From: an uncultured Clostridia bacterium
GTDB taxonomy: Bacteria > Bacillota > Clostridia > TANB77 > CAG-508
Reading direction: 5' to 3'
Assembly: GCA_944392435.1 (NCBI GenBank)
Contig: CALXWQ010000001.1
Span: 1 to 35,895 of the forward strand
Length of the DNA: 35,895 bases
The position numbers were made by a program, and so were the translations under genes. Positions 2,727 through 33,699 of this stretch are shown one piece after another (positions within the stretch are counted from its first letter, which is position 1; each line of letters starts with the position of its first letter). The notes beneath the pieces were generated by a model. It searched no databases. It was not told the DNA's origin and was given only the letters and a program-made list of their open reading frames with translations.

Positions 2727-4304
2727 TTACTGTAATATTCCACTTAATTTATCTAATGCTCTATCTGCCAATTTTCCATATTTTAGTTTTTTATCTTTTA
2801 TTCTCTCAGGAAGTTCTGGTAATATTCCAAAATTCGCATTCATTGGTTGAAAGTTTTTGTTTTCGCTAGCAATATATTTTGATAAAGCACCTATCATTGT
2901 CTCTTTCGGAAATGTAATTTGTCGCATTAGGGACAGGCCTTTTCGCGACATATTTGTCGTTTTTATATTTGTCCTACTTTGCTCTTCTCTATTTAATCTT
3001 TCATACATTTCCACTGAATTTAATGCTGCAACTAATCCTGATGCTATTGATTCTACATATCCCTCTACACCAGTTATCTGTCCAGCGAAAAATATATTCC
3101 TATTTTTCTTTAGGTTATATGTTTCATCAAGTAATTCTGGTGAATTTATAAATGTATTTCTATGCATTACACCATATTTCGCAAAATCTGCATTTTGAAG
3201 TCCTGGTATTAAGCTAAATACTCTTTTTTGCTCTCCATATTTCAAATTTGTTTGAAAACCTACCATATTAAATAAATTTCCTTCACTATTGTCCTGTCTT
3301 AGCTGTACAATTGCATATGGTCTTTTACCTGTTCTAGGGTCTGTAAATCCAACTGGTTTTAGTGGGCCATATCTCAATGTGTCTATTCCTCTTTTTGCCA
3401 TTACTTCTATAGGCATACAACCTTCAAAAATCTCTCTTTTTTCAAAATTATGTAGTTCTACCACTTCTGCTTTTACAAGTTCATTCCAAAATTTCTCATA
3501 CTCTTCTTTATTCATTGGAAGATTTATATAGTTATTTTCATTACTATTTTTTATTCTTTCTTGCCACGTTTCTACATCTTCATCTTTACCTCTTTCTTGG
3601 CTATATCTATCTCCCCAAAAAGCAATACTCATATCTATGCTTTCTTTTTCTATTATAGGGGCTGCAGCATCATAGAAATGTAATCCCTCATCTCCTGTAA
3701 GCTTTACTATCTCCCAAGATAATGCATCTGAAGTTAGTGGACCTGTAGCAATAATTACTATTCCATCTTTTGAAAGTTGTTCTAATGAAATTACATCTTT
3801 TTGCTCAACACCGCATTCTATATTATTCTCTTTCGTTGATTTACTGTTTTCCATTTCTGTTGGCATAGACTTTATTTCATCATTATTATCTTTACTTTCC
3901 AAAAAATTTGTTTCTGTGTTTCTATCTCCACTTTTGCCTACTTCTTTCCTTATGATTTCCACATTTTCTAAACTTTCTAACTTTTTGGTTATCTCTTGTG
4001 AAAATCTTTCTCTATCTACAGCCAACGCTTGTCCTGCTGGAACAGCTACTTCATCCGCTGTTTTTATTAAAAGTGAATCCAACATGCGTAATTCTTCTTT
4101 TAACAATCCGCATGCATTTGTATGTAAATTTGATTTAAATGAATTGCTACATACAATTTCTGCTAAATTTGTATTACTATGTGCTGGTGAAAATTTATCT
4201 GGTTTCATTTCATAAAGCTTTACCTTTATTTCTCTTTTTGCAATTTGATATGCCGCTTCTGAGCCAGCTAATCCGCCACCTATTACTGTTATATATTCTT
4301 TCAT
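2727..4304 (-). CDS. trmFO: Methylenetetrahydrofolate--tRNA-(uracil54-C5)-methyltransferase TrmFO (Gid), with low-complexity insertions
   Basis: MKEYITVIGGGLAGSEAAYQIA (FAD dinucleotide fold), ...IATGPLTS..., FFAGQITGVEGYVESIASG, NFQPMNANFG. Start moved to ATG 4304 (GGAGG 4 nt upstream); the track's TTG 4322 contains that SD. Confidence 0.92.
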   Translation of the reverse strand: MKEYITVIGGGLAGSEAAYQIAKREIKVKLYEMKPDKFSPAHSNTNLAEIVCSNSFKSNLHTNACGLLKEELRMLDSLLIKTADEVAVPAGQALAVDRERFSQEITKKLESLENVEIIRKEVGKSGDRNTETNFLESKDNNDEIKSMPTEMENSKSTKENNIECGVEQKDVISLEQLSKDGIVIIATGPLTSDALSWEIVKLTGDEGLHFYDAAAPIIEKESIDMSIAFWGDRYSQERGKDEDVETWQERIKNSNENNYINLPMNKEEYEKFWNELVKAEVVELHNFEKREIFEGCMPIEVMAKRGIDTLRYGPLKPVGFTDPRTGKRPYAIVQLRQDNSEGNLFNMVGFQTNLKYGEQKRVFSLIPGLQNADFAKYGVMHRNTFINSPELLDETYNLKKNRNIFFAGQITGVEGYVESIASGLVAALNSVEMYERLNREEQSRTNIKTTNMSRKGLSLMRQITFPKETMIGALSKYIASENKNFQPMNANFGILPELPERIKDKKLKYGKLADRALDKLSGILQ

Positions 4305-4358
4305 ACTTCCTCCATTTTTCAAATCCTGCCTACAACTATTTACACAGCTATCGTTTTT

Positions 4359-4563
4359 AGTCTAGCAATGTATGTTTATAAATTCTCATTTGAGTGCTTA
4401 AGGTGGGGACCGACAAGTTACAGTCTGTAGAAAAAATACTCATGAATAAAAAACTTGTTTTTTATTCATGGTAGAAAGTATGCATATCTCTTGTGTTCTT
4501 TCTTACAGACTGTACGCAGCTTGGGGCCGAAAATGAGAATTTATAAACATACATTGCTAGACT
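4359..4563 (+). repeat. Family A nested-palindrome repeat, copy A1 (full length)
   Basis: Perfect 33-bp terminal inverted repeats AGTCTAGCAATGTATGTTTATAAATTCTCATTT (4359-4391 / 4531-4563). Left core TGAGTGCTTAAGGTGGGGACCGACAAG. Inner stem TACAGTCTGTA / TACAGACTGTA (4419-4429 / 4504-4514). Central 14-bp palindrome CATGAATAAAAAAC/GTTTTTTATTCATG (4441-4470). Right core GTACGCAGCTTGGGGCCGAAAA. Confidence 0.85.
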
Positions 4564-4583
4564 TTTATGAATAACTGTAGTAG

Positions 4584-4603
4584 AACAACGCCAAAATGCA
4601 ATT
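4584..4603 (+). repeat. Family B right-end relic
   Basis: AACAACGCCAAAATGCAATT is identical at 19 of 20 positions to the right end of copy B1 (13305-13324). Confidence 0.6.
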
Positions 4604-4615
4604 CTATTGCAACGG

Positions 4616-7588
4616 TTACTCAAACAATGCCATAATATCTTCCTTAGTAAGTTTATTTATAAATGTTTGCTCTGTAGAAAGCATTGCCTTTGCAAGGTTT
4701 GCTTTCTTTTGTTGCAATTCATAAATTCTCTCTTCTATAGAGTCCTTTGTAATTAGTTTGTACACTTGAACATTCTTTTTCTGTCCTATTCTGTATGTTC
4801 TATCTGTAGCCTGATTTTCTGCTGACAAATTCCACCATGGATCATAATGTATTACCATGTCAGCTCCTATTAAGTTGAGGCCTGTTCCACCTGCTTTAAG
4901 TGATATCAAAAACACTTTTATGTCGTCATTGTTGTTAAACTCCTCAACAAGTTTTATTCTATCTCCTACTTTGGTTTGTCCTGTTAATTTGAAGTACTTT
5001 ATATCTTCCTTTTTTAAGCTATTTTCTATGATTTCTAGCATGCTAGAATAACCTGAGAATAACAATATTTTGTGTCCAGATGCTATAGCATCTTTTAATA
5101 CTTCTATACATTGGTTTAGCTTGCTACTCTCTCCTTTATAGTTTGATATAAATAGAGATGGATGGCAACAAATTTGTCTTAATCTCATTAATAGTGACAA
5201 TATTTTGATTTGGCTTTTTTCAAATCCATTTTTGTTTAGTTCTTCTTTCACTTCTTGTCTAGCATTCGCCATATATGATTTATATATCTTTAATTGCTCA
5301 TCTTGCATTTCATTGTTAAGCACACTTATTGTTTTGTCTGGTAATTCAGTCAAAACTTGTTTTTTAGTTCTCCTTAAAATAAATGGCTCTATTAACATTT
5401 TTAATTTTTCCATAATAAAACTATCATTTTCTTTTACTATAGGAACTTCATAAGAGTCTTTAAATTTTTTGTAGCTAAATAAATAGCCTGGCATTATGAA
5501 GTCAAATATAGACCATAATTCTGATAATGAATTTTCAATAGGTGTACCGGTTAGTGCATACCTTGTCTCTGACCTTATTTCTTTAATTGCCTTTGCATTT
5601 TGAGTACTATTGTTCTTTATGTATTGGGCTTCATCTGCAATTATATACTTAAACTCATAATTTGCTTCTTTGTAATCTTCTATATCTCTTTTTAGCAAAT
5701 CATATGATGTAATTACTAAGTTGTATTTTTTTATACTTTTTATTTGATCTTTTCTCTCTTCTGCAGTCCCATGAATAACTAGTGTTTTTATACTTGGAGC
5801 AAATTTATCTATTTCACTCTTCCAATTCAATGAAAGTGAACTTGGGCAAACTACAATACTTGGTTTTGGATTTTTATTTTCTTTCAAATATGATAAGATA
5901 ACCGCTAATAACTGAACTGTTTTACCAAGTCCCATATCATCTGCAAGAATTCCTCCAAATTTGTAATTGTCCAATACTTTTAGCCATTCAAAACCTATTT
6001 TTTGATAATTTCTCAAACTTGTTTGCAAGCCTGCTGGAAGTTTTATCTCTTCCTCAATTTCCTTTTTGGATACTTGATTTACTATTTTCTTATATTCTTC
6101 ATTCTTAGAAACAGTAGTGTTCACTTTGTTCAATATCCTGTCTAAATACATGCTTCTAGAGATTGGAAGCCTAATTTCTCCTTTTTTTATTTCGTCATAA
6201 GTGATTTCCTCATTTTCAAGCAATCCTGTTATAAAGTCCATAGTCTCATTTTGCTCTAAATCTAGGAAGCTTCCATCTTTTAATCTATGATATTTCTTTT
6301 TTAGAGTGTACTTTTGCATTATATTTCTTATTTCTTTTATATCAAAATCCATATCTTGCAAATCTACTCTAAGCAAATCATTTTCTAGCTTAACACCTAT
6401 TGACCCAATTTTCGGCTTTCTTATTTCTCTTTTCTTAAAATTGTCTGTAGCTAAAACTTCAAATTTTTGCATATATTTTTCAATTTCTTCAGATAAAAAA
6501 TTGTAAATTTTCTCTTCATCAACTAAAATTAGTCTGCTATTTTCCTTATCTAGCATAAACCCTGTATTTACAAACACGTCTAGATACTCATTTTCTTTAG
6601 CAATATCTCTTGCAATAGTTATCTTCTCCTCTTTTAAAGGATTAAACTCGTACTCTCCATACACAAATTTTATATCAGCAGTTATATAGTTGTTTTTATC
6701 ATAGTCTAAATAAATTTTAACAAACAAATCCTCTGGTATATATTTATTAATTAAACTATCATCTAGTTTTTGCAATGATATTTTGCCCTTTAATTTAGGA
6801 TAAATCAATGAACAAAAATTAGGTAAATCTTCTCTTTTAAATCTTATTACTTCTGCATAATTTTCTTTATATATATCTAAAAGCTTTAATGTAGTATTTT
6901 CAAAATCCTTATCACATCTGTATAAAGATTTTCCTGTAAGTAAGTATATATATGATTTTCCTTTGAATATGTCATATGGAAAAACTTTTTTATTTGGAGT
7001 AATTTTATAGTTTCCATCTCTTTCTTGCTCTATAATAAAGTTTATATCTGGATTACTATTTTCAAAAGAAATTTTCTGCTCTACTGTATCTCTTTTGAAA
7101 AGGACTTTCTTTCCTTGCAATACATCAAATAGTTCGTCTAATCCAGTATTTGAAATAGTTATAAACTCATTACTCATAGTTCTATTATATTTGCTATAAC
7201 TTCCCACAGTTTCATTTGCATATTTAATTATTTCTGCATATTTCAAAACAAAGTTTAGCAATGGAAGACACTCTTTTTTGAAAGTTTCCTCTGTATGAAC
7301 GAACTCTAATTTGGGTCCATATTTATATACTTCTTTATTTAACATTCTTTCAAAAAATTCTGGTAAACTTTTTATTTGATATAACTGATTATCTCCAATC
7401 TTAAACTCTGCTTTCAATGTTTTATTAAATGTATCATATATTAATTTTGGCTCTATATTTAAATTATTTATTTTACTTTTTTCTTTCTCCTCTTGCTCTT
7501 TTTCATTATGATAAAAAGTATGCACAATCTGTTTAAATATCTTATATTGTTCTTCATTCCTATTCATTTTTAAGATATCCCTTCTCAT
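4616..7588 (-). CDS. SNF2-family DEAD/DEAH-box helicase with a long N-terminal accessory region (YwqA-like)
   Basis: Helicase motifs ADDMGLGKT (I), IADEAQYIKN (II), LTGTPIENS (III), and C-terminal ...LKAGGTGLNL...QATDRTYRIGQ. The first 520 aa or so are non-catalytic. The alternative ATG at 7567 has a better-placed AAGGGA. Confidence 0.9.
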   Translation of the reverse strand: MRRDILKMNRNEEQYKIFKQIVHTFYHNEKEQEEKEKSKINNLNIEPKLIYDTFNKTLKAEFKIGDNQLYQIKSLPEFFERMLNKEVYKYGPKLEFVHTEETFKKECLPLLNFVLKYAEIIKYANETVGSYSKYNRTMSNEFITISNTGLDELFDVLQGKKVLFKRDTVEQKISFENSNPDINFIIEQERDGNYKITPNKKVFPYDIFKGKSYIYLLTGKSLYRCDKDFENTTLKLLDIYKENYAEVIRFKREDLPNFCSLIYPKLKGKISLQKLDDSLINKYIPEDLFVKIYLDYDKNNYITADIKFVYGEYEFNPLKEEKITIARDIAKENEYLDVFVNTGFMLDKENSRLILVDEEKIYNFLSEEIEKYMQKFEVLATDNFKKREIRKPKIGSIGVKLENDLLRVDLQDMDFDIKEIRNIMQKYTLKKKYHRLKDGSFLDLEQNETMDFITGLLENEEITYDEIKKGEIRLPISRSMYLDRILNKVNTTVSKNEEYKKIVNQVSKKEIEEEIKLPAGLQTSLRNYQKIGFEWLKVLDNYKFGGILADDMGLGKTVQLLAVILSYLKENKNPKPSIVVCPSSLSLNWKSEIDKFAPSIKTLVIHGTAEERKDQIKSIKKYNLVITSYDLLKRDIEDYKEANYEFKYIIADEAQYIKNNSTQNAKAIKEIRSETRYALTGTPIENSLSELWSIFDFIMPGYLFSYKKFKDSYEVPIVKENDSFIMEKLKMLIEPFILRRTKKQVLTELPDKTISVLNNEMQDEQLKIYKSYMANARQEVKEELNKNGFEKSQIKILSLLMRLRQICCHPSLFISNYKGESSKLNQCIEVLKDAIASGHKILLFSGYSSMLEIIENSLKKEDIKYFKLTGQTKVGDRIKLVEEFNNNDDIKVFLISLKAGGTGLNLIGADMVIHYDPWWNLSAENQATDRTYRIGQKKNVQVYKLITKDSIEERIYELQQKKANLAKAMLSTEQTFINKLTKEDIMALFE

Positions 7589-7698
7589 TTTTTCTAGTAA
7601 GGTATTATATCACATTTTACTGGCTTGTGCAAGAGAAGGGCTGGCAATTTTTCGAACAAAGGTAACTATTTAAGGCTTTTTGATTTTTGCTTTTTTTT

Positions 7699-7927
7699 AT
7701 CTAGGCAATGTGTATGTTTTAAATTTTGCTTGAGTGCTTAAGGTGGGGACAGACAATTTTACATTTCTGAGACGTGAGATATGTGATGTGTGTTGTGAGA
7801 ACTTAGAATAAAGTATTTCACATATCTCATTTCTCACCTCTCACTTCTCATTTCCCATAATACAGTTTGTACGCAGTTGAGGACCGAAAGCAAATATTTA
7901 CAACATACATATTCATATTTCCTAGAT
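7699..7927 (+). repeat. Family A repeat, copy A2 (full length, large variable insert)
   Basis: Left end ATCTAGGCAATGTGTATGTTTTAAATTTTGCTTGAGTGCTTAAGGTGGGGACAGACAA. Right end ACAGTTTGTACGCAGTTGAGGACCGAAAGCAAATATTTACAACATACAT...CCTAGAT (imperfect TIR). The variable centre has its own 12-bp stem TGAGATATGTGA/TCACATATCTCA (7775-7786 / 7818-7829) and a TCTCA(C/T) run. A possible degenerate extra copy lies at about 7621-7655 (GTGCAAGAGAAGGGCTGGCAATTTTT). Confidence 0.8.
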
Positions 7928-7986
7928 TTTATTCAAAATCTTTAAATAGTAGCAAACTATTAAATGTAATTTCATATAACTCTAGA

Positions 7987-8023
7987 AAATGTCGCAAAAA
8001 GGGCTGTCCCTTTTGCGACATTT
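7987..8023 (-). terminator. Rho-independent terminator of topA
   Basis: AAATGTCGCAAAAAGGG / CCCTTTTGCGACATTT stem (one bulge) overlapping the topA stop. On the minus strand it is followed by TTTTCTAG. Confidence 0.7.
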
Positions 8024-9998
8024 ATTTCTTTGGTTTGTTCCATGAGATGTAATCACATGATTTTGGATTGTTTTCACAAATATAGAACTTTCTTTTTTTC
8101 TTAGATTTACGTACTTGTATTTTTCCTCCACATTTAGGGCATGGTACGTCAATTGTTTCTACAATAGGCTTTGTATTTTTGCATTCTGGGTATCCAGGAC
8201 ATGCTAAGAATTTTCCGAATCTTCCATATTTTACTACCATCATTCTTCCACATTTATCACATGGTACATCTGATACTTCTTCTACTAATTCTACGTGTTC
8301 TAATTCATTCTCAACTTTTTCTACTTCTTTTTCAAATGGTCCATAGAATTCACGTATTACTTGTTTCCACTGTTCTTTTCCTTCTGCTACTTCGTCAAAT
8401 TCTTCCTCTATTTTTGCTGTAAATTCTACATTTATTATATCTGAAAAGTTTTCTGTAAGCAGTTTATTTACAACCTTTCCAAGTTCTGTCGGTATTAATT
8501 GTTTTTGTTCTTTTTCTATATATCTTCTCTCTAGAATAGTTGTTATTGTTGGAGAATACGTACTTGGTCTACCAATCCCTTTCTCTTCCAATGCTTTTAC
8601 TAAGCTTGCCTCTGTATATCTTGGTGGTGGCTGTGTAAAGCTTTGCTTTGAATCTAACTTTTTCTTCTGTACCTCTTGATTTTCTTTTAAATCTGGTACA
8701 AAAGATTCTTCATCTTCACCACTTTGGTTATCTGATGTTTCTACATACAATGTCATAAAACCTTTAAATTTAAGCGATTGTCCACTTGCTCTAAAATTAT
8801 ATTCATTTACATCAATATTTGCAGAAATTGTATCATATACTGCTGATTGCATTTGACTTGCTAAAAATCTATTGTATATTAATTTATATAGCTTGTATTG
8901 GTCTTTGCTTAAACTATCCTTTATTTCTTCCGGATTTAAGTCCACATATGTTGGACGTATACCTTCATGAGCATCTTGAGAATTTTGCTTTGTTTTGTAA
9001 TATCTGTTTTCGTAGTATTCTTCTCCATATAGTTTTACTATTTCCTTTTTAGCTACTGCTCTTGCCTCATCAGATATTCTTGTCGAGTCTGTTCTCATAT
9101 ATGTTATTAAACCAACTGTTCCTCTTCCTTCAACCTTTACACCTTCATATAATCCTTGTGCAACTGACATTGTTTTCTTTAATGTAAATCCTAATTTTCT
9201 TGAAGCCTCTTGTTGCATTGTACTTGTTGTAAATGGTGGGGCTGGTGTTCTTTTCTTTTGACCTTTTTTTATTTCTGTTACAATATATTTTCCATTTTCA
9301 ATATTTTTTAATATCTCGTCTACTTCTTCTTTGGAATGCAATTCTATCTTCTTTTTATTCTTGCCATATAGCTTAGCTATAAATGTTTTGTTTGAATTTT
9401 CATCTAATAATGTAGCTATTATATTCCAGTACTCTTCTGGTATGAATTTTTCAATTTCTTCTTCACGGTCACAGATAAGCTTTACTGCCACAGACTGCAC
9501 TCTACCGGCAGACAATCCTCTTCTTACTTTTTTCCATAATACAGGGCTAATCTTATATCCCACAATTCTATCTAATACACGTCTTGCTTGTTGTGCATTT
9601 GTTAAGTTCATATCTATTTTTCTAGGATGTTTTATTGATTCTTGTACAGTTTCTTTTGTAATTTCATTAAAAGTTACTCTACAAACACTATCTTCTGGAA
9701 TTCCTAAAATATATGCTAAATGCCATGCAATAGCCTCTCCCTCACGGTCAGGGTCAGTTGCAAGATACACTTTTTTTGCTTTTTTAGCATCTGCCTTTAA
9801 AGATTTTATTAAATCTCCTTTTCCACGTATATTTATATATTCTGGTTCAAAATCATGTTCTATATCTATACCCATTTTTGACTTAGGTAAATCTCTTATA
9901 TGTCCCATTGATGCAACAACTTTTGTACTTCCACCAAGGAATTTTTTTATTGTATTTGCCTTTGCAGGTGACTCAACAATTATTAATTTATCTGCCAT
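8022..9998 (-). CDS. topA: DNA topoisomerase I
   Basis: Toprim motifs LIIVESPAKA and DPDREGE, active-site tyrosine context ITYMRTDS, and two C-terminal Cys4 zinc ribbons (CDKCGRMM...CPGYPEC; CPKCGG...CENNPKSC). Confidence 0.95.
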   Translation of the reverse strand: MADKLIIVESPAKANTIKKFLGGSTKVVASMGHIRDLPKSKMGIDIEHDFEPEYINIRGKGDLIKSLKADAKKAKKVYLATDPDREGEAIAWHLAYILGIPEDSVCRVTFNEITKETVQESIKHPRKIDMNLTNAQQARRVLDRIVGYKISPVLWKKVRRGLSAGRVQSVAVKLICDREEEIEKFIPEEYWNIIATLLDENSNKTFIAKLYGKNKKKIELHSKEEVDEILKNIENGKYIVTEIKKGQKKRTPAPPFTTSTMQQEASRKLGFTLKKTMSVAQGLYEGVKVEGRGTVGLITYMRTDSTRISDEARAVAKKEIVKLYGEEYYENRYYKTKQNSQDAHEGIRPTYVDLNPEEIKDSLSKDQYKLYKLIYNRFLASQMQSAVYDTISANIDVNEYNFRASGQSLKFKGFMTLYVETSDNQSGEDEESFVPDLKENQEVQKKKLDSKQSFTQPPPRYTEASLVKALEEKGIGRPSTYSPTITTILERRYIEKEQKQLIPTELGKVVNKLLTENFSDIINVEFTAKIEEEFDEVAEGKEQWKQVIREFYGPFEKEVEKVENELEHVELVEEVSDVPCDKCGRMMVVKYGRFGKFLACPGYPECKNTKPIVETIDVPCPKCGGKIQVRKSKKKRKFYICENNPKSCDYISWNKPKK

Positions 9999-10126
9999 AT
10001 ATAATTTTTTCCTTTCGTAATTTATATAGACTTATTATATGCAATATTTTGAAAAATAGTCTATATAGTATAATACAGCATATTTTTTATTTTTGCAAGC
10101 AATTTATAGAATTTTCACAATTACTC

Positions 10127-10161
10127 CAAAAAAATCAGTTTTGGTTTAATCCAAAACTGAT
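10127..10161 (-). terminator. Rho-independent terminator of the 103-aa gene
   Basis: ATCAGTTTTGG / CCAAAACTGAT (10134-10144 / 10151-10161) with the stop codon in the loop. On the minus strand it is followed by TTTTTTT. Confidence 0.7.
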
Positions 10162-10457
10162 ATATCTGAAATCACATCATCTACAGATATAGGTGTTACT
10201 TTGTTTAACATTAGAATTTTTAGTAAGCTTTTAATTTTATTTTCTTCATTAGATATATTGTTTACTATTTTTGATTCAATATTAAATTTTTCACTCTTTT
10301 CTTCTCTTTTTACAACTTCAATTCCGTATTTTCTATTATTCTTTCCTGCTATGTTGTGGGTTTCGTAATATTCAAGTTCAATATCATCAGAAACATCGTC
10401 ATAATCTGAACTTTCAATTACTGTTCTTCCAAAAAGGCTCTTTTTGTACTCCATCAT
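10146..10457 (-). CDS. Hypothetical acidic small protein (103 aa), likely Spo0A-controlled
   Basis: Strong SD AAAGGGGGAA 4-5 nt before ATGATG, plus its own promoter and terminator. I recognise no family. Confidence 0.7.
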   Translation of the reverse strand: MMEYKKSLFGRTVIESSDYDDVSDDIELEYYETHNIAGKNNRKYGIEVVKREEKSEKFNIESKIVNNISNEENKIKSLLKILMLNKVTPISVDDVISDISVLD

Positions 10458-10489
10458 TTGTTCCCCCTTTCTAAATAGCGTACTTCTTA

Positions 10490-10554
10490 ACTATAATACA
10501 AAAAGCTTTAAATAGCAAGGAAAATCGTATGCCATGTTTCGACACAATTCGACA
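10490..10554 (-). promoter_or_regulatory. Sigma-A-type promoter preceded by two perfect tandem Spo0A (0A) boxes
   Basis: The minus strand reads TGTCGAA-TTG-TGTCGAA (10554-10548 and 10544-10538, 10-bp period). TTGCTA (10518-10513), a 17-nt spacer and TATAGT (10495-10490) follow. Confidence 0.55.
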
Positions 10555-10574
10555 AAGCTCTTTTATCCCATTAC

Positions 10575-10703
10575 AGAAGATTATAAATTTTTTATTTGAG
10601 TGCTTAATGTGGGGACCGGCAAGTTTACAAACTGTTAAACGAAGTTTTTACAGTTTGTACGCAGTTGTGGCCGAAAATAAAAATAAAAAATTTATAATCT
10701 TCT
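10575..10703 (+). repeat. Family A repeat, copy A3 (compact full copy)
   Basis: Perfect 23-bp TIR AGAAGATTATAAATTTTTTATTT (10575-10597 / 10681-10703). Cores GAGTGCTTAATGTGGGGACCGGCAAG and GTACGCAGTTGTGGCCGAAAA. Inner stem TACAAACTGT / ACAGTTTGTA (10625-10634 / 10650-10659). Confidence 0.85.
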
Positions 10704-10728
10704 ATACCTACTAATAAAGAAAGGTACT

Positions 10729-11841
10729 TTATATTACCTTCCTTATTTCCTCATATATTTTTTCTTCTACATTAGGCATTGCTACTTTTGTAGCATTATT
10801 TCCCATTTGTTTTAATGTATTGGGATTACAAACTACTTCCTCAATAGTCTTCTCTAAACTTTCAGAATTCAAATCTTTATCTAAAATTATTTTTGCTGCT
10901 CCTACTTTTTCCAAAACTCTAGCATTATATTCTTGATGATTCTCTGTTGCGTATGGATATGGTATAAATATTGCAGGTTTGCCTACAACAGAAATTTCAG
11001 TAATTGTCATTGCTCCACTTCTACATACTACTAAATCACATGCATTCATTACTTCTTCCATATTATATATGTATGGGACAATTTTTACATTTTCTATATT
11101 GTTTATATTCATGTTTACTTCATCTAGCTTAATTTTTATCTCATCATATTGTCCTGGTCCTGCCGCCCAAATTATTTGATAATCTTTATTTTTTTTATTT
11201 ACTATTATTTCTAGGAAACTTCTATTTATGCTTTGTGCCCCTTGGCTTCCGCCAAAAACCAATACTACAGGCTTATTTTCTTTTATTCCTAACTTGGTTT
11301 TTATTTTCTTCTTTTCTTCTTCTGACAAATCTAGTTTCTTTATTTTTACTGGATTTCCTGTTACTACTACATTACTTGCTCCTTCTAATCTATCTTTTGC
11401 ATCCTGAAACCCTACCAATATTTTATTTACTTTTTTCTTAAATAATTTTACTGCAATTCCAGGAAATGCGTTACTTTCATGAAGTACAACTGGTATTCTC
11501 ATTTTCTTTGCTGCTAGAACTGTTGGTACACAAATATATCCGCCCATTCCTATAACTACATTTGGTCTAAAGTTATCCAAAAATCTTTGTGCTTCCCCTA
11601 TTGACTTAAAAGTAGCATATAAATTTTTAAAATTTTGTACTGTAAATTTTCTTTCAATTCCATGGGCATCAATTGTCCAAAGAGGAAAACCTGCTCTAGG
11701 AACTAAATCGTTTTCTAATCCTCTATTTGTTCCTATAAAAATGATCTCTGACTTTGGTTCTTTTTCTTTAATTTTATTTGCTATAGCTATTCCAGGATTT
11801 ATATGTCCTCCTGTACCTGCAGCTGCAATTATAACTTTCAT
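10729..11841 (-). CDS. murG: UDP-N-acetylglucosamine--N-acetylmuramyl-(pentapeptide) pyrophosphoryl-undecaprenol GlcNAc transferase
   Basis: MKVIIAAAGTGGHINPGIAIA N-terminus, GGSQGA motif and dcw context. Start moved to ATG 11841 because the AGGAAGGA SD abuts the track's ATG 11850. Confidence 0.93.
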   Translation of the reverse strand: MKVIIAAAGTGGHINPGIAIANKIKEKEPKSEIIFIGTNRGLENDLVPRAGFPLWTIDAHGIERKFTVQNFKNLYATFKSIGEAQRFLDNFRPNVVIGMGGYICVPTVLAAKKMRIPVVLHESNAFPGIAVKLFKKKVNKILVGFQDAKDRLEGASNVVVTGNPVKIKKLDLSEEEKKKIKTKLGIKENKPVVLVFGGSQGAQSINRSFLEIIVNKKNKDYQIIWAAGPGQYDEIKIKLDEVNMNINNIENVKIVPYIYNMEEVMNACDLVVCRSGAMTITEISVVGKPAIFIPYPYATENHQEYNARVLEKVGAAKIILDKDLNSESLEKTIEEVVCNPNTLKQMGNNATKVAMPNVEEKIYEEIRKVI

Positions 11842-16108: not shown

Positions 16109-16244
16109 AGCTTAGATTCTCCCCTCTCTTAATTTTAAAATATGCCTTTTACATTATATAACTAAATTTAACTTTTGTACATACTTTTTCAAAATTTACT
16201 TTTTATCGACTTATTATTTAAAAATTTTTGATTTTTGCTTTTTT

Positions 16245-16325
16245 ATCTAGGAAATATGTATGTTTTAAATTTTGCCTAAAGTGCTTAAGGTGAGGGCTGG
16301 AAATAAAAATAAAAAACATATACTT
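16245..16325 (+). repeat. Family A repeat, copy A4 (internally deleted; right boundary approximate)
   Basis: ATCTAGGAAATATGTATGTTTTAAATTTTGCCTAAAGTGCTTAAGGTGAGGGCTGGAAATAAAAATAAAAAAC. The left arm and the preceding TTTTTGATTTTTGCTTTTTT closely match A2 (7678-7745). The single hybrid GGTGAGGGCTGG replaces both cores and everything between them. Confidence 0.7.
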
Positions 16326-16344: not shown

Positions 16345-18573
16345 TTACTTGTACTCCACCACCACTTTTGTTCCTTCATAAATTTCAATTCCACTAACAG
16401 GAACTTGAACTGTAACAGTCTTATCCGCTACATTCTCCTCTGTTTCTTCATAGCTTATTTCAAGTCCTACATCCTCCAATATTTTCTTTGCCTCACTAAC
16501 CGTTAAACCCGTTACATTTGGAACTTCTACTTCTTCTTTTATATCATCTTCTGTTAGATTATCTTTTTGAACTTCTAAATATGGAAGAACTTCTCCCAAT
16601 ACTTGTGAGCCTATTGGTGCTGCAACACCTCCTCCTTGGTGTCCTCCTTCTCCTGTTGGATTATACAATGTTATTAGTACTACTACTTGTGGGTCAGATA
16701 CTGGTGCTACTCCTACAAATGAAGTTACGTATTTCCCTGTATTTACTCCATCTTCTGAAGTTCCTGTTTTTCCTCCTATTGAATATCCTTGTACTCTAGC
16801 ATTTTTTCCTGTTCCTTCAGCAACAACTGTCCCCATCATGCTAAGTACATCTTCTGCAGTTTTTTGTGATATTACTCCTTCTGTCTCTTCTATTGGTATA
16901 TCTGTAATTTCTCCAGTCACACTATTTATGATTTGTTTTACAATGCGTGGTTTTACATATGTTCCTTTGTTCGCAATTGTACTTACAGCTGTTATCATTT
17001 GTATTGGTGTTATTTCAAATCTCTGTCCAAATGATATAGTCGCAAGTTCTACCGGTCCCACTTTATCTTCCTTTAAGAAAATACTTCCTGCTTCTCCTGG
17101 AAGATCAATCCCCGTTCTTTTTAATAATCCAAACTTTTCAAGATAATCATAATACTTGCTTACTCCAATTTCTTGACCTAATCCTATAAAAACAGGATTA
17201 CATGAATTCATAAGAGCCTGCCTTAAACTTTCTGAACCATGTGGGTTATAGTATCTCCAACAACTTATACGTACTCCTGCTACTGTTATTCCTCCTGTAC
17301 AGCAAAATTCACCTTGTTTATCTGTTGTAGTTATTCCTTCCTCTAGTGCTGCTGATGCAGTAATCAATTTGAATGTAGAGCCTGGCTCATATGTATCTGC
17401 AACAGCTTTATTTCTCCAAACTTTTTGCATCTCTGCAACTTGTTCAGTTTCCGATAAGTTATCCCAACTTTCTCGTAACTCTTCTATAGTAGTCTCATAT
17501 GGCGTATTCAAGTTATAATCTGGATATCCAGCCATTGCCAAAATATCTCCAGTTTTTGGGTTCATAACAATTATGTTTCCCCCATCTGTACATTTATTGT
17601 CAATACATGCCTCTTTCAGGTATTTTTCAGCTATTCCCTGTATTGTCGCATCAATACTTAAAACTAAATCATTGCCATCTACTGCGGAAGTGTAACTTTC
17701 TCCTTCATTCTCTATTTCGCCTCCATTTGCATCTGTGACCTTAGTAATTCTACCCTTTTCTCCTTGCAATTCATCTTCATAAATTGCTTCTATTCCATCT
17801 AATCCCTGATTGTCGGAGCCACAAAACCCTATTACCTGAGATGCTAAACTATTATATGGATAATATCTTTTCGTATCTTCATCTATATTTATTCCAGTTT
17901 CTATATTGTTAGCCTCCATCCAAACTCTAAGCTCATCAGTTTTTTCTTTTTCTACTTTTCTAGCTATATTTTCAATAGATGTTTTTTTGTTTACCTTTTT
18001 TAATACAGTCTCATAGTCTAAGTCAAATATATTGCTAAGTGCTTCTGCCACCTTTTCTTTATTTTCTTTAGAGATATTAGTTGGATTTACAGTTACTGTA
18101 TTTACAGTACTACTCACTGCCAAAATAGTTTTTCCTGTAGCATCATATATAGTTCCCCTTCTTGGATTTACTGCTCTTTCCAAACTCTGTTGCTCATAAG
18201 CCATCCTCTTTAATTCATCACCCATTACAAATTGTATCCAAGCAATTCTTCCAATAAATACAGTAAATATTAAACAAACTGCAACTATTGCCACTTTAAA
18301 TCTTTTTCTTCTACTAATCTCGCTATATTTTTCTTCTGCTTTTACCTTATCTTCTTTTATCTGTTTTCTATACTTCTTATTTTGTTTTTTTTCAAATTTC
18401 TTTTTCAATCTTTCTACATTCTCTATCTTTTCAGCTTTTTCTTTTTTTATATTCATTATTTCTTTTCTATCAAATCTTGGTATTATCTTTTTTCTCTCTT
18501 TCTCTCTATAAAATCCTCTTTTGGTTTTTCTTTTGTTCCCCTTTCTTTTTCCTGTATTCATTCTTAATCTCAT
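16345..18573 (-). CDS. Class B penicillin-binding protein (PBP2B/SpoVD type) with one PASTA domain and a long Lys-rich cytoplasmic tail
   Basis: Transpeptidase motifs STFK (EPGSTFKLITA), SCN (MNSCNP) and KTGT, plus C-terminal PASTA (VPNVTGLTVSEAKKILEDVGL). About 90 K/R/E-rich residues precede the TM helix. ATG 18561 is the alternative start. Confidence 0.92.
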   Translation of the reverse strand: MRLRMNTGKRKGNKRKTKRGFYREKERKKIIPRFDRKEIMNIKKEKAEKIENVERLKKKFEKKQNKKYRKQIKEDKVKAEEKYSEISRRKRFKVAIVAVCLIFTVFIGRIAWIQFVMGDELKRMAYEQQSLERAVNPRRGTIYDATGKTILAVSSTVNTVTVNPTNISKENKEKVAEALSNIFDLDYETVLKKVNKKTSIENIARKVEKEKTDELRVWMEANNIETGINIDEDTKRYYPYNSLASQVIGFCGSDNQGLDGIEAIYEDELQGEKGRITKVTDANGGEIENEGESYTSAVDGNDLVLSIDATIQGIAEKYLKEACIDNKCTDGGNIIVMNPKTGDILAMAGYPDYNLNTPYETTIEELRESWDNLSETEQVAEMQKVWRNKAVADTYEPGSTFKLITASAALEEGITTTDKQGEFCCTGGITVAGVRISCWRYYNPHGSESLRQALMNSCNPVFIGLGQEIGVSKYYDYLEKFGLLKRTGIDLPGEAGSIFLKEDKVGPVELATISFGQRFEITPIQMITAVSTIANKGTYVKPRIVKQIINSVTGEITDIPIEETEGVISQKTAEDVLSMMGTVVAEGTGKNARVQGYSIGGKTGTSEDGVNTGKYVTSFVGVAPVSDPQVVVLITLYNPTGEGGHQGGGVAAPIGSQVLGEVLPYLEVQKDNLTEDDIKEEVEVPNVTGLTVSEAKKILEDVGLEISYEETEENVADKTVTVQVPVSGIEIYEGTKVVVEYK

Positions 18574-22139: not shown

Positions 22140-22233
22140 GATGTTAGAATTCACGGCTTTCCGATTTATAATTTAATAGAGAAAGAAACATCATTTTATA
22201 AAATGCAATCGGCAAGCCGTGAATTCTAACATC
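22140..22233. repeat. 27-bp inverted repeat with 40-nt spacer
   Basis: GATGTTAGAATTCACGGCTTTCCGATT (22140-22166) and AATCGGCAAGCCGTGAATTCTAACATC (22207-22233) are complementary at 26 of 27 positions. There is no adjacent T-run on either strand. Confidence 0.7.
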
Positions 22234-25271: not shown

Positions 25272-27557
25272 CTATTCTTCTATTTCTTCTTGCAATACAA
25301 CATCAATTACAGTTCCCTCTTCCACAGATGTACCTGCTGTTATGCTTTGGGTAATAACTTTTCCTGCTCCTGAATATTTTATATTCAAGTTTTTATTTCT
25401 TAACGCTGCTTTAGCTTCTGATAAACTCATACCCTTTAAGTTTGGAACAGATTGAGATACTTTTGTATCATTATCTGCTGAATAAAGTTTGACTATAGAG
25501 CCCTCAATTAATGAAGTTCCTGCCACCGGCATTTGCTCACTTACTAGGTCTTCAGAATCACCTGATACTTCACAAGTAAATCCTTGCTTTTCTAGGATTT
25601 TCTTTGCTTCTGCAATAGTCTTATTCTTAACATTTGGTAATGATATAGTCTCTGCAGTCGAATCACTATCTGTTGTATCTGATTGTATACCTAAATATGG
25701 TAATACTTCTGATAAAATTTGATGTACAACTGGTCCTGCAACACTGCTACCACTATGTTTTTCTCCATTAAGTCCATATAAAGTTACAAGAATTACTACT
25801 TCTGGGCTTTCTACTGGAGATATTGCAGCAAAAGAAGCTACAAATCCAGCATCCTCACTAGAATAATCTGGTTCTGATGTTCCAGTTTTACCAGCTATAC
25901 TATATCCCTTAACTTGTGCATAACTTCCAGTTCCACTGTCTACAACGGTTTCTAACATATCTAGCATAGTCTCAGACGTTTCCTTAGAAATAACTTGTCT
26001 TACCTTTACTGGTTCTATTGTTGTTATTGCCCCTGTTTCAGTATTTTTTATTTCTTTTGCAATTCGTGGTTGCATTAAAATTCCATCATTTGCTACAGCA
26101 GAAACTGCTGTAATCATTTGAAGTGGTGTAATTCTAAATCTTTGTCCAAAAGACATAGTAGCTAATTCTACATCTTTTACATCACTTAAATTCCAGAAAA
26201 TTCCACTTCTTTCTCCCGAACTTCCAGAGTCTCCAATATCTCCAAAATCTGTCGTATTGAAGAAGCCAAATGCATCATAATATTTATATAATGTTTCTGC
26301 ACCAATTTTTTGTCCCAATTGGATAAAGGCTGGATTACATGAATATTTAAGTGCATCTCTAAGGCTCAACTTACCATGTCCACTTCTATCTGAGCAAGCT
26401 ATTTTTACTCCAGATACTACTTCTACCCCCTCACATGTAAAAGTTCCTGGTTCATCTGGAGAAACTAAGTCTTCTTCTAATGCAGTAGCAGCTGTAACTA
26501 TTTTAAAAACAGATCCTGGCTCATATGTGTACGTTATAGCTTTATTATTCCAGGTTTCTTGTAATTTAGTATTTTGCTCCTCTGACGACATTTTCTTCCA
26601 TTCTTTTTCTGGTATATAGTCTAATGTATATGGATTATTTAGATTATAGTCTGGATATGTTGCCATTGCCAAAATATCTCCATTATTTGGATTCATTATA
26701 ATTACATTTCCACCTTCTTGACAATCATATTCTTCACATGCCTGTTTTAAATATTTTTCTGCAACTTGTTGAATATTTGCATCTATTGTAAGTGTTATAT
26801 CATTTCCATTTTGTGGTGCTATATATGTACCATTTTCATATGGTATAAGATCTTGAACGGCATCCTGAGCTGATGTAACTTTTCCAGGTGTACCTGTCAA
26901 AATATCGTTCCACTTAGATTCTAAGCCCCATAAGCCTTGATTATCTGTTCCACAAAATCCAATCAAATTAGAAGCTAGATTATTATATGGGTAATACCTT
27001 TTTGTATCTTCATCTATATTTATCCCACTATATACTTTATTTTCTTTCATCCAATTTTCTAGCTTTTCTATTTTGTCGTTTTCAACTTTTCTAGCAATTG
27101 TTACATTTGTACTATCACTAGACACTTTTTTCAAAGTCTCGTCATAATCTAATTCAAATATGTCTGAAAACGCTTTTGCTACTTTCTCTCTAAGTTGTTG
27201 AGTTAATAACTTTGCAGCTTCCTCATCTTCATTTTTTACTACTATTTGCGTTGGGTCAACACTTACAGTATCAACCTGTGCACTAATTGCCAAAGCCTTT
27301 CCTGTAGAATCATAAATTGTACCTCTCTTTGGGCTAATTACTTTGCTTGTTGTAAGTTGTCTATACATATCTTCTTTAAGTTCAGCCCCTTGTACAATTT
27401 GCAACCATCCTATTCTAAATACTAATAATACAAATACCACGAAAAAAACTATTAATATTCTTCCTAATCTTTCATTTAAAGTAAGTATTTTTTTTACTTT
27501 ACTTGAATTTTTATTCTTTTTAAATTTATATACATTTGTATTTTTATTATTATTCAA
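25272..27557 (-). CDS. Second class B penicillin-binding protein (SpoVD/PBP2B paralogue) with two PASTA domains
   Basis: SVFK (EPGSVFKIVTA), SCN (KYSCNP) and KTGTS. Two PASTA repeats (LPNVKNKTIAEAKKILEKQGF; VPNLKGMSLSEAKAALRNKNL). Long stretches parallel the 16345..18573 PBP, for example NIDEDTKRYYPYN(S/N)LAS. TTG start 27557 with GAAAGGAAG upstream. Confidence 0.92.
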   Translation of the reverse strand: MNNNKNTNVYKFKKNKNSSKVKKILTLNERLGRILIVFFVVFVLLVFRIGWLQIVQGAELKEDMYRQLTTSKVISPKRGTIYDSTGKALAISAQVDTVSVDPTQIVVKNEDEEAAKLLTQQLREKVAKAFSDIFELDYDETLKKVSSDSTNVTIARKVENDKIEKLENWMKENKVYSGINIDEDTKRYYPYNNLASNLIGFCGTDNQGLWGLESKWNDILTGTPGKVTSAQDAVQDLIPYENGTYIAPQNGNDITLTIDANIQQVAEKYLKQACEEYDCQEGGNVIIMNPNNGDILAMATYPDYNLNNPYTLDYIPEKEWKKMSSEEQNTKLQETWNNKAITYTYEPGSVFKIVTAATALEEDLVSPDEPGTFTCEGVEVVSGVKIACSDRSGHGKLSLRDALKYSCNPAFIQLGQKIGAETLYKYYDAFGFFNTTDFGDIGDSGSSGERSGIFWNLSDVKDVELATMSFGQRFRITPLQMITAVSAVANDGILMQPRIAKEIKNTETGAITTIEPVKVRQVISKETSETMLDMLETVVDSGTGSYAQVKGYSIAGKTGTSEPDYSSEDAGFVASFAAISPVESPEVVILVTLYGLNGEKHSGSSVAGPVVHQILSEVLPYLGIQSDTTDSDSTAETISLPNVKNKTIAEAKKILEKQGFTCEVSGDSEDLVSEQMPVAGTSLIEGSIVKLYSADNDTKVSQSVPNLKGMSLSEAKAALRNKNLNIKYSGAGKVITQSITAGTSVEEGTVIDVVLQEEIEE

Positions 27558-29722: not shown

Positions 29723-29889
29723 AATTTTCAATCCTTCACCTTTGAAATATACCATATAAATGTACTTATTTCAAGGCTTTTTTTAAAAGTTTTTTATTCC
29801 AATCAGTAATCTTCTACGGAAAGTCAAGTTTAGAGTTATAAATTTTTTTATATTAATTTTTACAATTCACATCAATCCAAAAGAAATAT

Positions 29890-29940
29890 ATATTTTTTAT
29901 TTTTATTTGAGTACTTATGTTTGGGCTGGAATTAAAAAGA
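29890..29940 (+). repeat. Family A repeat, copy A5 (short, diverged; boundaries approximate)
   Basis: TTTTTATTTTTATTTGAGTACTTATGTTTGGGCTGGAATTAAAAAG parallels A3/A4: TTTTTTATTTGAGTGCTTAA.GT.GGG and GGGCTGGAAATAAAAA. Confidence 0.5.
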
Positions 29941-30068
29941 ACAAAGCGACGAACGTCGCCCTTTGTTCGTGCTGATTTGAGTTTCCGAGCGAAGTGAGGA
30001 AATCTCAAAGGCAATAGCGATTTCAGCTCTAATTTAAGTTATAGGAAATGCAATTTCCTATAACTTAA
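29939..30068. repeat. Three consecutive hairpins in the tilS-ftsH spacer
   Basis: GAACAAAGCGACG-AA-CGTCGCCCTTTGTTC (29939-29968). TTTGAGTTTCC...GGAAATCTCAAA (about 29976-30009). A perfect 16-bp stem TTAAGTTATAGGAAAT / ATTTCCTATAACTTAA (30034-30049 / 30053-30068). Confidence 0.7.
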
Positions 30069-30100
30069 AAAACAATATTTCTTTTGGATTATAAGGCTAA

Positions 30101-31545: not shown

Positions 31546-32877
31546 TTACTCTCTATATTTTTCTAAATTTACAAATTTTGTATAGTTACCTAGCCAACGT
31601 AATTCTACAGTTCCAGTTGAACCTGCTCTATGCTTAGCAAGAATTACTTCCGCAATATCCTTTTTTTCACTATCCTCATTATAATAATCGTCCCTATAAA
31701 GGAATATAACTATATCTGCATCTTGCTCAATAGAACCAGATTCACGAAGATCCGAAAGCATTGGTCTGTGGTCAGGTCTTTGTTCTGGAGCTCTTGATAG
31801 CTGTGATAAAGCTATTACTGGTACTTTAATCTCTTTTGCCAAAATCTTAAGTGAACGGCTTATCTCAGCAATTTCTTGCTCACGGCTAGAGCCTCTTTTT
31901 GCACTTCCCTGTACTAATTGCAAATAGTCAATAACTACTAGACCAATATTTTTTTCCATTTTCATTTTTCTACATTTTGCTCTAATTTCCATAATTGAAA
32001 TTCCAGGTGTATCATCTATGTATATTTGTGATTCAGATAATATACCTGATGCTTCTGCAAGTTTTACCCAGTCTTCATCTTCTAGTGTACCAGTTCTAAC
32101 CTTGTTGCTATCAACCATCGCCTCTGAACACAAAATTCTATTTACCATTTGTTCTTTTGACATCTCCAAGCTAAATATAACCACTGGTGTATTTGCTCTT
32201 ACAGCAGCATTTGAAGCTATGTTTAACGCAAAAGCTGATTTACCCATAGCAGGTCTTGCTGCAACTAAAATCAAATCCGATTTATGAAGTCCTGCTGTTT
32301 TGTAGTCTAAGTCTGCAAATCCTGTTGGAATACCTGTAATATGTTGTTTTCTATTATATAACTGCTCTAGTTCTGTAAATGTATCTACAAGTATGTCCTT
32401 TATTGAGCTGTAACCAGTTTGGTTCTTTTTTTGCATTACCTCAAATATCTTTCTTTCTGAATTATCAATAATATCTTCTACTTCCTGAGTAGGATCATAC
32501 CCTAAAGTTATAATATCATTTGCTGTCTTAATAAGATTTCTTAAAATTGATTTTTCCTCAACAATTTTTATATACTGCTCAACATTGGATGTAGTTGGAA
32601 CTTTATCAGGAAGTTCTGCTATATACTCTAAGCCCCCTACAGCATCTAATTTTCCCATAGAGGAAAGCTCTGACCTTAATGTAATAATATCAATTGGCTC
32701 ATTTCTATTGTATAAATTTAAAATAGCCATAAAAATAATCCTATTGTCTTCTCTATAAAAGTCTTCTTCTTTTAAAACTTCAATAGCTGCAAAAACAGCA
32801 TCTTTATCAGTTAGCATACTTCCAATAACTGCTTGCTCAGCTTCTGTATCATTTGGTGGTACTTTTCCTATCTCCAT
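31546..32877 (-). CDS. dnaB: Replicative DNA helicase
   Basis: PPNDTEAEQAVIGSML N-terminus, Walker A ARPAMGKSAFALN, Walker B VVIDYLQL, and ALSQLSR / SDLRESGSIEQDAD. Confidence 0.96.
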   Translation of the reverse strand: MEIGKVPPNDTEAEQAVIGSMLTDKDAVFAAIEVLKEEDFYREDNRIIFMAILNLYNRNEPIDIITLRSELSSMGKLDAVGGLEYIAELPDKVPTTSNVEQYIKIVEEKSILRNLIKTANDIITLGYDPTQEVEDIIDNSERKIFEVMQKKNQTGYSSIKDILVDTFTELEQLYNRKQHITGIPTGFADLDYKTAGLHKSDLILVAARPAMGKSAFALNIASNAAVRANTPVVIFSLEMSKEQMVNRILCSEAMVDSNKVRTGTLEDEDWVKLAEASGILSESQIYIDDTPGISIMEIRAKCRKMKMEKNIGLVVIDYLQLVQGSAKRGSSREQEIAEISRSLKILAKEIKVPVIALSQLSRAPEQRPDHRPMLSDLRESGSIEQDADIVIFLYRDDYYNEDSEKKDIAEVILAKHRAGSTGTVELRWLGNYTKFVNLEKYRE

Positions 32878-33072
32878 TTATATTCACATTCCTTCCTATT
32901 TTGATTATACTCAGTGTTAAATTATATATTTTATTAGATTCTTAAAGCAAATCAAGCAAAATTATAAACTGTTAAGCAAAACTTTAATTTTCTGTCTTAT
33001 AGTTTTTATGAACAAAAATAAAAATATATAATCTAATACTGTCAGTATAAAATAGTATTCTTGATAATCATA

Positions 33073-33516: not shown

Positions 33517-33699
33517 AGCTGTTTCCTCCTTCTTTTATTTGGTTAATTTTAATTTTACTGTGTTTTTTATAACTAATTTATATTTTTTCTTTTTTAATCG
33601 TGTATATATTTTATACTAAATTTACCAATTTTTCAAGTTGTTTTAGACCAATGTGCTAGTTTTTTTGTAGCTACACAAGATGTATTCCAAAGTGTAAAA

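Follow-up and report, generated by a model that had tools for sequence, protein, structure and literature searches.

A candidate MITE-like repeat family with a nested-palindrome architecture in uncultured gut Clostridia

Family A is a set of short repeats dispersed in the intergenic DNA of uncultured gut Clostridia. We consider it probable that these repeats are the conserved interior of a non-autonomous, MITE-like DNA transposon with a nested-palindrome structure and a length of 190-290 bp. From the outside to the inside, such an element would consist of ~15-bp terminal inverted repeats (TIRs), mismatched T- or A-rich loops, arms of ~31 bp, an asymmetric core (TTGAGTGCTTAAGGTGGGGACCGACAAG ... 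CG[A/C][T/A]GTTGGGGGCCGAAAA) and an inner stem whose tip accepts inserts of differing length. Apart from an autonomous partner, which did not turn up in the flanks searched, each of the features expected from a MITE was tested for and observed: the units are short, within the ~100-500 bp of MITEs, and non-coding, they have TIRs and target duplications of ~8 bp, and their copies are dispersed, polymorphic between genomes and in part decaying or truncated. The sequence-only reading of the DNA that first noted the family had listed a MITE among several options, and these data support that option. As far as our tools show, family A is undescribed and restricted to a small clade of these bacteria.

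The copies of the window

The window, the whole stretch of DNA analysed here, is 35,895 nucleotides long and comes from an uncultured Clostridia bacterium (contig CALXWQ010000001.1, positions 1 to 35,895, forward strand). The repeat is real. The left core TTGAGTGCTTAAGGTGGGGAC lies on the + strand at 4390, 7730 and 10596 (with one mismatch at 10596), and the right core motif on the same strand at 4511, 7868 and 10656 and nowhere else in the window; neither motif has other matches in the window, and 100 shuffles gave 0 matches to either. A repeat finder groups the left core at 4377, 7717, 10583, 16264 and 29894, which bears out the five copies first proposed. Three copies are full (A1, A2 and A3) and two are minimal (A4 and A5); all are on the + strand and all are intergenic. 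Their parts are as follows.

4330..4587, +, A1, whole unit as delimited here by reading the sequence from outer to outer inverted repeat
~4330-4349 and ~4570-4587, +, A1 outer inverted repeat, degenerate (CTACAACTATTTACACAGCT and its partner GAATAACTGTAGTAGAAC)
4359..4389, +, A1 5′ arm AGTCTAGCAATGTATGTTTATAAATTCTCAT, complementary to 4533-4563 (31/31)
4390..4417, +, A1 left core TTGAGTGCTTAAGGTGGGGACCGACAAG
4418..4514, +, A1 inner stem TTACAGTCTGTAG / CTTACAGACTGTA with an apical insert of ~70 nt
4515..4532, +, A1 right core CGCAGCTTGGGGCCGAAA
4533..4563, +, A1 3′ arm, pairs with the 5′ arm
7662..7953, +, A2, whole unit, with recognisable outer TIRs
7662-7676 and 7939-7953, +, A2 outer TIRs GTAACTATTTAAGGC and TCTTTAAATAGTAGC
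7699-7729 and 7890-7927, +, A2 arms, enclosing the core at 7730-7889
10575..10703, +, A3 arms and short-type core (core at 10596-10676)
16209..16325, +, A4, truncated minimal copy
16209-16223, +, A4 5′ outer repeat-like sequence CTTATTATTTAAAAA
16278-16302, +, A4 left core fused to CTGGAAA, followed by a degenerate 3′ arm
29859..30090, +, A5, composite unit
29859-29873, +, A5 5′ outer repeat TTTACAATTCACATC
29874-29898 and 30067-30090, +, A5 arms
29906-29932, +, A5 minimal A core

A1 occupies the spacer between the stop of the SNF2-helicase gene (4616) and the start of trmFO/gid (~4304). Its outer repeat is weak (local score 16), while its arms are complementary over 31 of 31 positions; counting the core's TT and AA as well gives the 33 of 33 originally noted. 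The apical insert of A1 is an A/T-rich hairpin of its own (CATGAATAAAAAAC-TTG-TTTTTTATTCATG), and inserts of this type are also present in L017, L020, L029, L038, L041, L050 and L086. In A2, T-rich mismatched loops separate the TIRs from the arms and the core holds a GA-rich hairpin insert of ~100 nt. A3 has a 6-nt deletion in its 5′ arm and three substitutions at otherwise invariant core positions; a possible degenerate outer repeat lies on its 5′ side (~10541-10559) and none on its 3′ side.

In the minimal copies A4 and A5, AGTGCTTAAGGTG(A)GGG is joined directly to CTGGAA, and no minimal core of the A4 type was found at other loci at useful stringency. The 5′ arm of A4 (16245-16275) is 95% identical to that of A2, and the interior of A5 is made of unrelated hairpin modules of higher G+C. 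The window also contains, at 22143-22230, an outer shell of the GTTAC type described below, with arms but almost no interior. By contrast, the putative relic at 7621-7655 was not recovered: the element profile has no match there and the segment overlaps a promoter-like site of the SNF2 gene.

Distribution of the family

Further copies are numerous, and the family amounts to 89 copies at 71 distinct loci. A scan of one genome per species returned 51 exact left-core loci in about 11 uncultured Clostridia/Clostridium MAGs, plus 2 chance matches. Searching the fetched loci with a profile brought in 8 more copies, which differ in the first core bases, and a metagenome scan yielded another 27 in metagenome contigs. 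All copies lie outside ORFs and no ORF lies inside the element.

Searches for a known family agree with the initial reading, which recognised no named repeat or RNA family. Rfam 15 gave no relevant match: in gathering mode there were 0 matches in the window and 0 to the elements of 12 other loci, in E-value mode A1 had only sub-threshold matches to plant and animal miRNA hairpins, and neither the IS605-associated RNA motifs nor HEARO matched. BLAST of the arms and core against plasmids and phages found no match, a scan of viral contigs gave 0 matches, and a literature search by core sequence returned only a chance match.

Outer repeats and target duplications

The arms had been taken for the terminal inverted repeats of the element. 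They prove to be an inner layer of a longer nested palindrome, which was exposed by aligning the 5′ flank of each copy with the reverse complement of its 3′ flank. In the best-preserved copies, inverted 15-bp outer repeats of a GTTAC type lie on both sides, 46-62 nt outside the core and 35-45 bp beyond the arms. Their consensus is 5′-GTTAC[A/T]ATT[C/T]A[C/A]AGC or a near variant; the left repeat occurs as GTTACAATTCACAGC, GTTACTATTTAAAGC and GTTACTGGATAATGG, and the right one is the complement, ending in GTAAC-3′. The loop between outer repeat and arm is short, mismatched and T-rich on both sides, except in one subfamily where it is A-rich, and the unit measures 190-292 bp between outer repeats. 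Among the 75 complete copies, 18 have the outer repeat at both ends and 15 at one end; in 34, the three variants recognise no outer repeat and there is no clear duplication, many of these copies having degenerate versions.

Direct repeats of 7-10 bp, whose sequence differs from site to site, abut the outer ends. The 8-mers abutting the unit are at least 7/8 identical in 8 of 20 copies, against 0.59 expected when partners were permuted 5000 times, with a maximum of 4 copies in any permutation. Examples are ACCCGATTC/ACCCGATTTC in L010 and its orthologue L028, AAGATATA in L034, TTTTACAC in L053 and TATTTAG in L015, together with octamers with one mismatch in L004, L033 and L044. In the youngest-looking subfamily, four of five complete copies (L010, L015, L040 and L043) carry direct repeats, at different genomic sites.

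Presence, absence and decay

Presence/absence at orthologous spacers, which the sequence-only reading had put forward as a check, was found for A1, for A2 and for four further filled and empty pairs. We compared ten contigs from strains whose DUF6514 protein is identical to that of the window. A2, A3 and A4 are fixed in all ten, and A1 is present in only two (L054/L055, one of them being the contig of the window). In strains L056-L059, a 139-aa ORF occupies the SNF2-trmFO spacer in place of A1. A1 is also found, 97% identical, in CAKNQJ (L050), the closest MAG, which in turn lacks A2 from the orthologous spacer: the flanks there are ~95% identical and the site holds a different palindrome.

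The other filled and empty orthologous spacers are L034 versus L016/L035, L044 versus L022, L039 versus L051 and L010 versus L033; these comparisons are between species, and the spacers align too poorly to yield base-exact footprints. The empty orthologues of L034 and L044 have just one copy of the octamer region that is duplicated at the filled sites.

Copies also decay. The A3 arms, described initially as 23/23 perfect, lack in the window copy 6 left-arm nt that other strains of the species retain, and these strains have the consensus at the three substituted core positions. A3 is thus a decaying copy, since the other strains keep both a perfect 29-bp stem and the consensus core bases. In L012 and L047 the left core runs into other sequence, as plain truncations, and deletion derivatives with the outer repeats only are found at L015:6741-6790 and L040:1577-1635.

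Covariation of stems and arms

The description of conserved asymmetric cores within variable yet complementary stems proved correct. Three central blocks hardly vary among the 41 short-type copies, namely the two cores, left and right (the latter CG(A/C)(T/A)GTTGGGGGCCGAAAA), and the inner stem TACAAACTGT/ACAGTTTGTA; the arms vary, as does the tip of this stem. Inner-stem covariation is borne out as well: pairing is kept in 99% of cells over these 41 copies and 10 pairs have changed on both sides, versus 3.7 in shuffles (0 of 500 shuffles reach 10). When partner columns are slid, pairing falls to 36-52%. As for the arms, each left arm is 91% complementary to its own right arm over a fixed 31 nt (95% with gaps) versus 68% to the arms of other copies, and the best match of an arm is its own partner in 34 of 47 copies.

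Identity between copies is ~70-74% in the arms and 86% in the core, its variable tip included. The core is also better conserved than the ends of the element, the opposite of a typical MITE.

Such a near-invariant core within covarying stems could suggest that the arms and core are a structured RNA, either a multicopy small RNA or a cis-acting element that RNase III processes once it is transcribed. In that case, an internal loop formed by the core would bind a protein or an RNA, and the MITE layers would be only a vehicle. We regard this explanation as unlikely, though the next most probable after the transposon. The + strand is predicted to fold at -63 kcal/mol against -55.8 for its complement, and the predicted core helices use, on the + strand only, invariant U.G pairs and one position that is G.U, A-U or G-C. 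Conserved tandem GA/GA at the arm junction and a 10-nt purine bulge AAGGUGGGGA are predicted too. Moreover, the same core sits in two outer types and the same outer type holds other cores, as cargo would. There is also a precedent in bcr1 of B. cereus, which is mobile, shows compensatory changes and is transcribed (PMC3184786).

Several observations speak against it, one of which comes from the orthologous loci L019, L026 and L052, whose flanks are 93-97% identical. Here the arms differ by two substitutions, each mirrored in the partner (GTGAGCA/TGCTCAC versus GCGAACA/TGTTCGC), and by a homopolymer indel that is mirrored as well (T7/A7 versus T6/A6). A mirrored indel is an outcome of DNA templating: it points to copying of one arm from the other and would be improbable under selection on an RNA helix. 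Thus, most of the covariation could arise at the DNA level. Furthermore, G.T mismatches in the arms (21) versus A.C mismatches (11) give no significant strand signal, Rfam is without a match, there is no conserved promoter in or beside the element in the A1-A3 region, single copies decay or vanish without replacement, and the core can point either way with respect to both the outer layers and the genes.

The core itself carries signs of exchange between loci. A variant of the right-core block, GCCAAAGG(G/T)CC, is scattered across unrelated arm subfamilies, which argues for conversion between dispersed copies; its state differs between the orthologues L003 and L011, the 150-nt upstream flanks of which are identical.

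A related proposal sees the arms and core as a self-contained RNA or ssDNA hairpin module, with an invariant bulge AAGGTGGGGA and a tandem-GA junction, selected for an activity of its own (a protein-binding small RNA, say, or the recognition site of a structure-specific recombinase) and moving between unrelated MITE shells through palindrome centres. It would explain why the core is more conserved than the TIRs and why one shell can hold alternative cores; we nevertheless give it rather little credit.

Interchangeable shells and cores

The same arms and core are also enclosed by a second outer repeat type, unrelated to the first (GGGGACGGGC... or (A)GCAAAAGGGGACGGGC..., that is (A)GCAA(AA/TT)GGGGACGGGCTTGTTTTGTAAAAA), in L038, L035, L051, L039 and several metagenome contigs. 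Conversely, the GTTAC shell and arms enclose other cores at L019:7721-7988 and L007:924-1083. New material always appears at the centre of symmetry, as do the apical inserts of A1 and A2. In addition, the asymmetric outer layers enclose the core in either orientation (L005/L010/L015/L028/L043 versus L040/L051), and the junctions are identical.

We read the two orientations as an inversion by recombination between the 31-bp arms, and ascribe the second shell type, alternative cores and central inserts to related palindromic repeats that recombined or inserted into one another. One could go further and propose that the arms and core are themselves the mobile unit: they would preferentially enter the middle of other palindromic repeats or hairpins, duplicating 3 bp (TTT/AAA), and the outer repeats would be older host elements. 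The unit does occur in two unrelated outer types and also without a recognisable outer repeat, both orientations share identical junctions in the same outer element, and additions are always central. Direct repeats of 3-4 nt (TTT/TTT or AAA/AAA) also abut the arms in 19 of 41 copies versus 9.5 expected. However, these repeats were inherited within subfamilies and so do not represent independent insertions, and a mismatched internal loop would explain them equally well. We found neither arms alone nor outer repeats alone that could be an empty precursor sharing this junction, every arm match being attached to a core. The youngest subfamily has its 7-10-bp duplication around the whole unit, outer repeats included, and recombination between 31-bp arms is a simpler source of two orientations. 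We therefore judge nested insertion of the arms and core improbable.

Genomic context and orientation

The credible genes of the window are all on the - strand, and the five + copies are consequently antisense to their neighbours. These are housekeeping genes (dcw cluster, topA, SNF2 helicase, trmFO, ftsH, tilS, dnaB, gdpP). Uniform orientation had been reported as a property of the element; it holds within the window (5/5), where it partly reflects the uniformly oriented gene block, but not across the family. As divergent and convergent spacers carry no orientation information, only tandem contexts were counted, with one locus per orthologue group: 23 are antisense and 10 sense (p = 0.035). 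The 54 classified loci further include 16 divergent versus 5 convergent spacers (p = 0.027). The antisense bias across the family is real but modest. Selection may have removed copies that point in the direction in which they would terminate a transcription unit.

Two regulatory roles were considered and rejected. The genes next to the copies are unrelated (trmFO, SNF2 helicase, topA, DUF6514, murG, murE, PBP, ftsH, tilS), which argues against a riboswitch or leader. An element-borne promoter was discarded as well, as the copies have no match to the consensus and the promoter-like site adjacent to A2 lies between element and gene; in the region 4200-10900, which spans A1-A3, there are 25 promoter-like sites versus 36 in shuffles, none of them within an element.

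In the + orientation the strong hairpin is usually followed by TTTAT or TTTTA, as would be the case in an immobile, SPRITE-like family of intrinsic terminators. This is nonetheless very unlikely to be what family A is. Indeed, only 5 of the 54 classified loci are convergent and most are antisense to flanking genes or in divergent promoter regions; the T-run has a counterpart 5′ of the hairpin, and in one subfamily it is A-rich instead; and the family shows insertion polymorphism with target duplications. A terminator scan found none at the elements, a simple scan of this kind being blind to hairpins with such large loops.

The search for a transposase

An autonomous partner with the same ends was not found in ~0.7 Mb of 8-kb flanks. 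Within these flanks there was likewise no transposase, a Y1 enzyme included, and no repeated tnpA-, tnpB- or RAYT-like gene, no intragenomic repeat of at least 300 bp and no recurrent flank protein, ORFs of at least 100 aa clustering into orthologue groups only. No copy has a long insert between its cores.

The least credible of the explanations is that family A derives from IS200/IS605 (as a PATE) or is REP/REPIN-like and moves as single-stranded DNA by a Y1 (HUH) transposase, both options of the sequence-only reading. The long hairpins and the asymmetric conserved core recall such elements, and a partial orientation bias could follow replication, the window lying in an origin-proximal block of co-oriented genes. 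However, IS200/IS605 and REP elements lack terminal inverted repeats and target duplications, having subterminal hairpins instead and inserting beside a fixed tetra- or pentanucleotide, so the proposal fails on its defining feature, given the TIRs and the ~8-bp duplications of variable sequence of family A. Nor did the 8-kb flanks hold a Y1 transposase or TnpB, or Rfam a matching IS605 motif or HEARO; the orientation bias is just 70:30, and the better-folding strand would be expected on the leading-strand, not the lagging-strand, template.

A proposed mechanism and its implications

Returning to the MITE-like transposon, we propose that a DDE-type transposase, encoded at another place in the genome and cutting with a stagger of ~8 bp, mobilises its copies in trans. 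Once inserted, a copy would keep its arms complementary mainly through correction at the DNA level, by template switching or gene conversion within the palindrome, rather than through selection on an RNA. Conversion between dispersed copies may account in part for the uniformity of the core, and recombination between the arms would make the core invertible relative to the outer layers. Finally, the excess of antisense copies and the small number in convergent spacers would reflect the purging of insertions that disturb transcription.

For annotation, it matters that a sizeable fraction of the long structured spacers of these gut Clostridia is explained by such elements. Searches for riboswitches or small RNAs in the clade should mask them first, as the covariation of their stems is strong but misleading. 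The family also offers a clear case, in nature, of a palindrome whose perfection is probably maintained by correction of one arm against the other, mirrored indel included, and of a layered repeat whose most conserved part is at the centre and whose outer shells are interchangeable. If the core were active in itself, it would illustrate how small structured modules can spread genome-wide inside transposon shells.

Comparison with known repeats

A close parallel is bcr1, an intergenic repeat of ~155 bp from the B. cereus group, a low-GC Firmicute, with short flanking direct repeats and no known transposase (PMC3184786). Its distribution varies between strains, and its strongly folded hairpin or cruciform is kept by compensatory changes, some copies having lost the structure (PMC3184786). 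Family A resembles it in that it is intergenic, flanked by direct repeats and strain-variable, with a compensatory fold that some copies have lost. On the other hand, bcr1 has a fixed 5-bp duplication (TTTAT) and is confined to the B. cereus group, whereas the duplications of family A are variable, of 7-10 bp (~8), and its hosts are uncultured Clostridia. The two have no sequence similarity, and family A is nested in three to four layers with a central asymmetric core as its best conserved part.

The Correia elements (NEMIS) of Neisseria are, like family A, gene-adjacent MITEs with TIRs and with long and internally deleted forms. They are 104-157 bp long, and their transcribed long hairpins are RNase III substrates. 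Their conserved part is the 26-bp terminal repeats and their target duplication is TA. Correia elements also carry an IHF-binding site and functional promoters (PMC3184786). In family A, on the contrary, the ends (GTTAC...) are the least conserved part, the duplication is of ~8 bp and no promoter was found.

The BOX elements of Streptococcus pneumoniae are modular and intergenic, with conserved end modules that pair, a variable middle and cargo in some copies, and are thought to be mobilised in trans (PMC3184786). They are linear boxA-boxB(n)-boxC arrays, in contrast to the nested palindrome of family A, and share no sequence with it.

Like family A, the BIMEs and REP clusters of enterobacteria are mosaics of palindromic units in intergenic DNA. 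REPs are GC-rich hairpins of ~35 bp that are moved or maintained by RAYT Y1 transposases and make no target duplication, unlike the AT-rich family A with its ~200 bp, terminal repeats and duplications, features foreign to REP elements. BIME and REP palindromes are also preferred insertion sites of IS elements such as IS1397. IS621 is another IS element that targets palindromes (PMC3184786).

Finally, terminator repeats of the SPRITE type are biased towards 3′ ends and convergent spacers, whereas family A has 5 convergent, 16 divergent, 23 tandem-antisense and 10 tandem-sense loci.

Other repeats besides family A

In addition to family A, a second family of palindromic repeats, whose ends are (A)GCAA(AA/TT)GGGGACGGGCTTGTTTTGTAAAAA...GCCCGTCCCC, was found at loci fetched from other genomes and metagenomes (handles beginning with L), and at several of them it bears the arms and core A. 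In the topA-SNF2 spacer of MAG CAKNQJ, a version of this family without core A lies exactly at the position of copy A2 in the window.

L050 (MAG CAKNQJ) 654-770; L035 1640-1745; L051 6733-6828; L038, L065, L067, L076 and L085: second palindromic family
Window 29933-30066 (within copy A5); L019 7721-7988; L007 924-1083: hairpin modules of higher G+C
Window 22143-22230: 88-bp palindromic unit, ends GTTAGAATTCACGGC...GCCGTGAATTCTAAC

The G+C-richer hairpin modules, exemplified by AACAAAGCGACGAACGTCGCCCTTTGTT and GATTTGAGTTTCCGAGCGAAGTGAGGAAATCTCAAAG, occupy the middle of shells like that of family A, either replacing core A or beside it, and probably represent at least one additional repeat family. 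The 88-bp unit, located in the spacer between a Fic-domain gene and a peptidoglycan-binding-domain gene, has ends of the type seen in the family-A outer repeats and lacks both arms and core. Window 17497-17974 and 26628-27105 (72-73% identity) are parts of two paralogous penicillin-binding-protein genes and do not constitute a mobile repeat.

Window 16345-18573 and 25272-27557: paralogous penicillin-binding-protein genes

Surroundings of the copies

L056 15902-16321 (likewise L057-L059): 139-aa ORF followed by hairpin GACGGACATATATTAC...GTAACATATGTCCGTC
L010 4747-5115: RNase P RNA gene (Rfam RF00010, 280 bits)
Window 10134-10161, - strand: terminator-like hairpin with T-run

In these four strains of the window's species, the ORF and hairpin occupy the A1 site of the SNF2-trmFO spacer; the ORF had no match in Pfam. 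The family-A copy on L010, 64 nt from the RNase P RNA gene, displays the clearest target duplication, ACCCGATTC. The terminator-like hairpin, the sole clean site of this kind close to family-A elements, overlaps the DUF6514 stop codon immediately upstream of topA.

Genome position of the window

Window 31546-35713, all one strand: gdpP, a small gene (33073-33516) and dnaB

The small gene would be rplI if the order matches that of Bacillus. The resemblance of this gene set to the origin-proximal region of Bacillus suggests a position close to oriC for the window, whose genes would then run in the same direction as replication.
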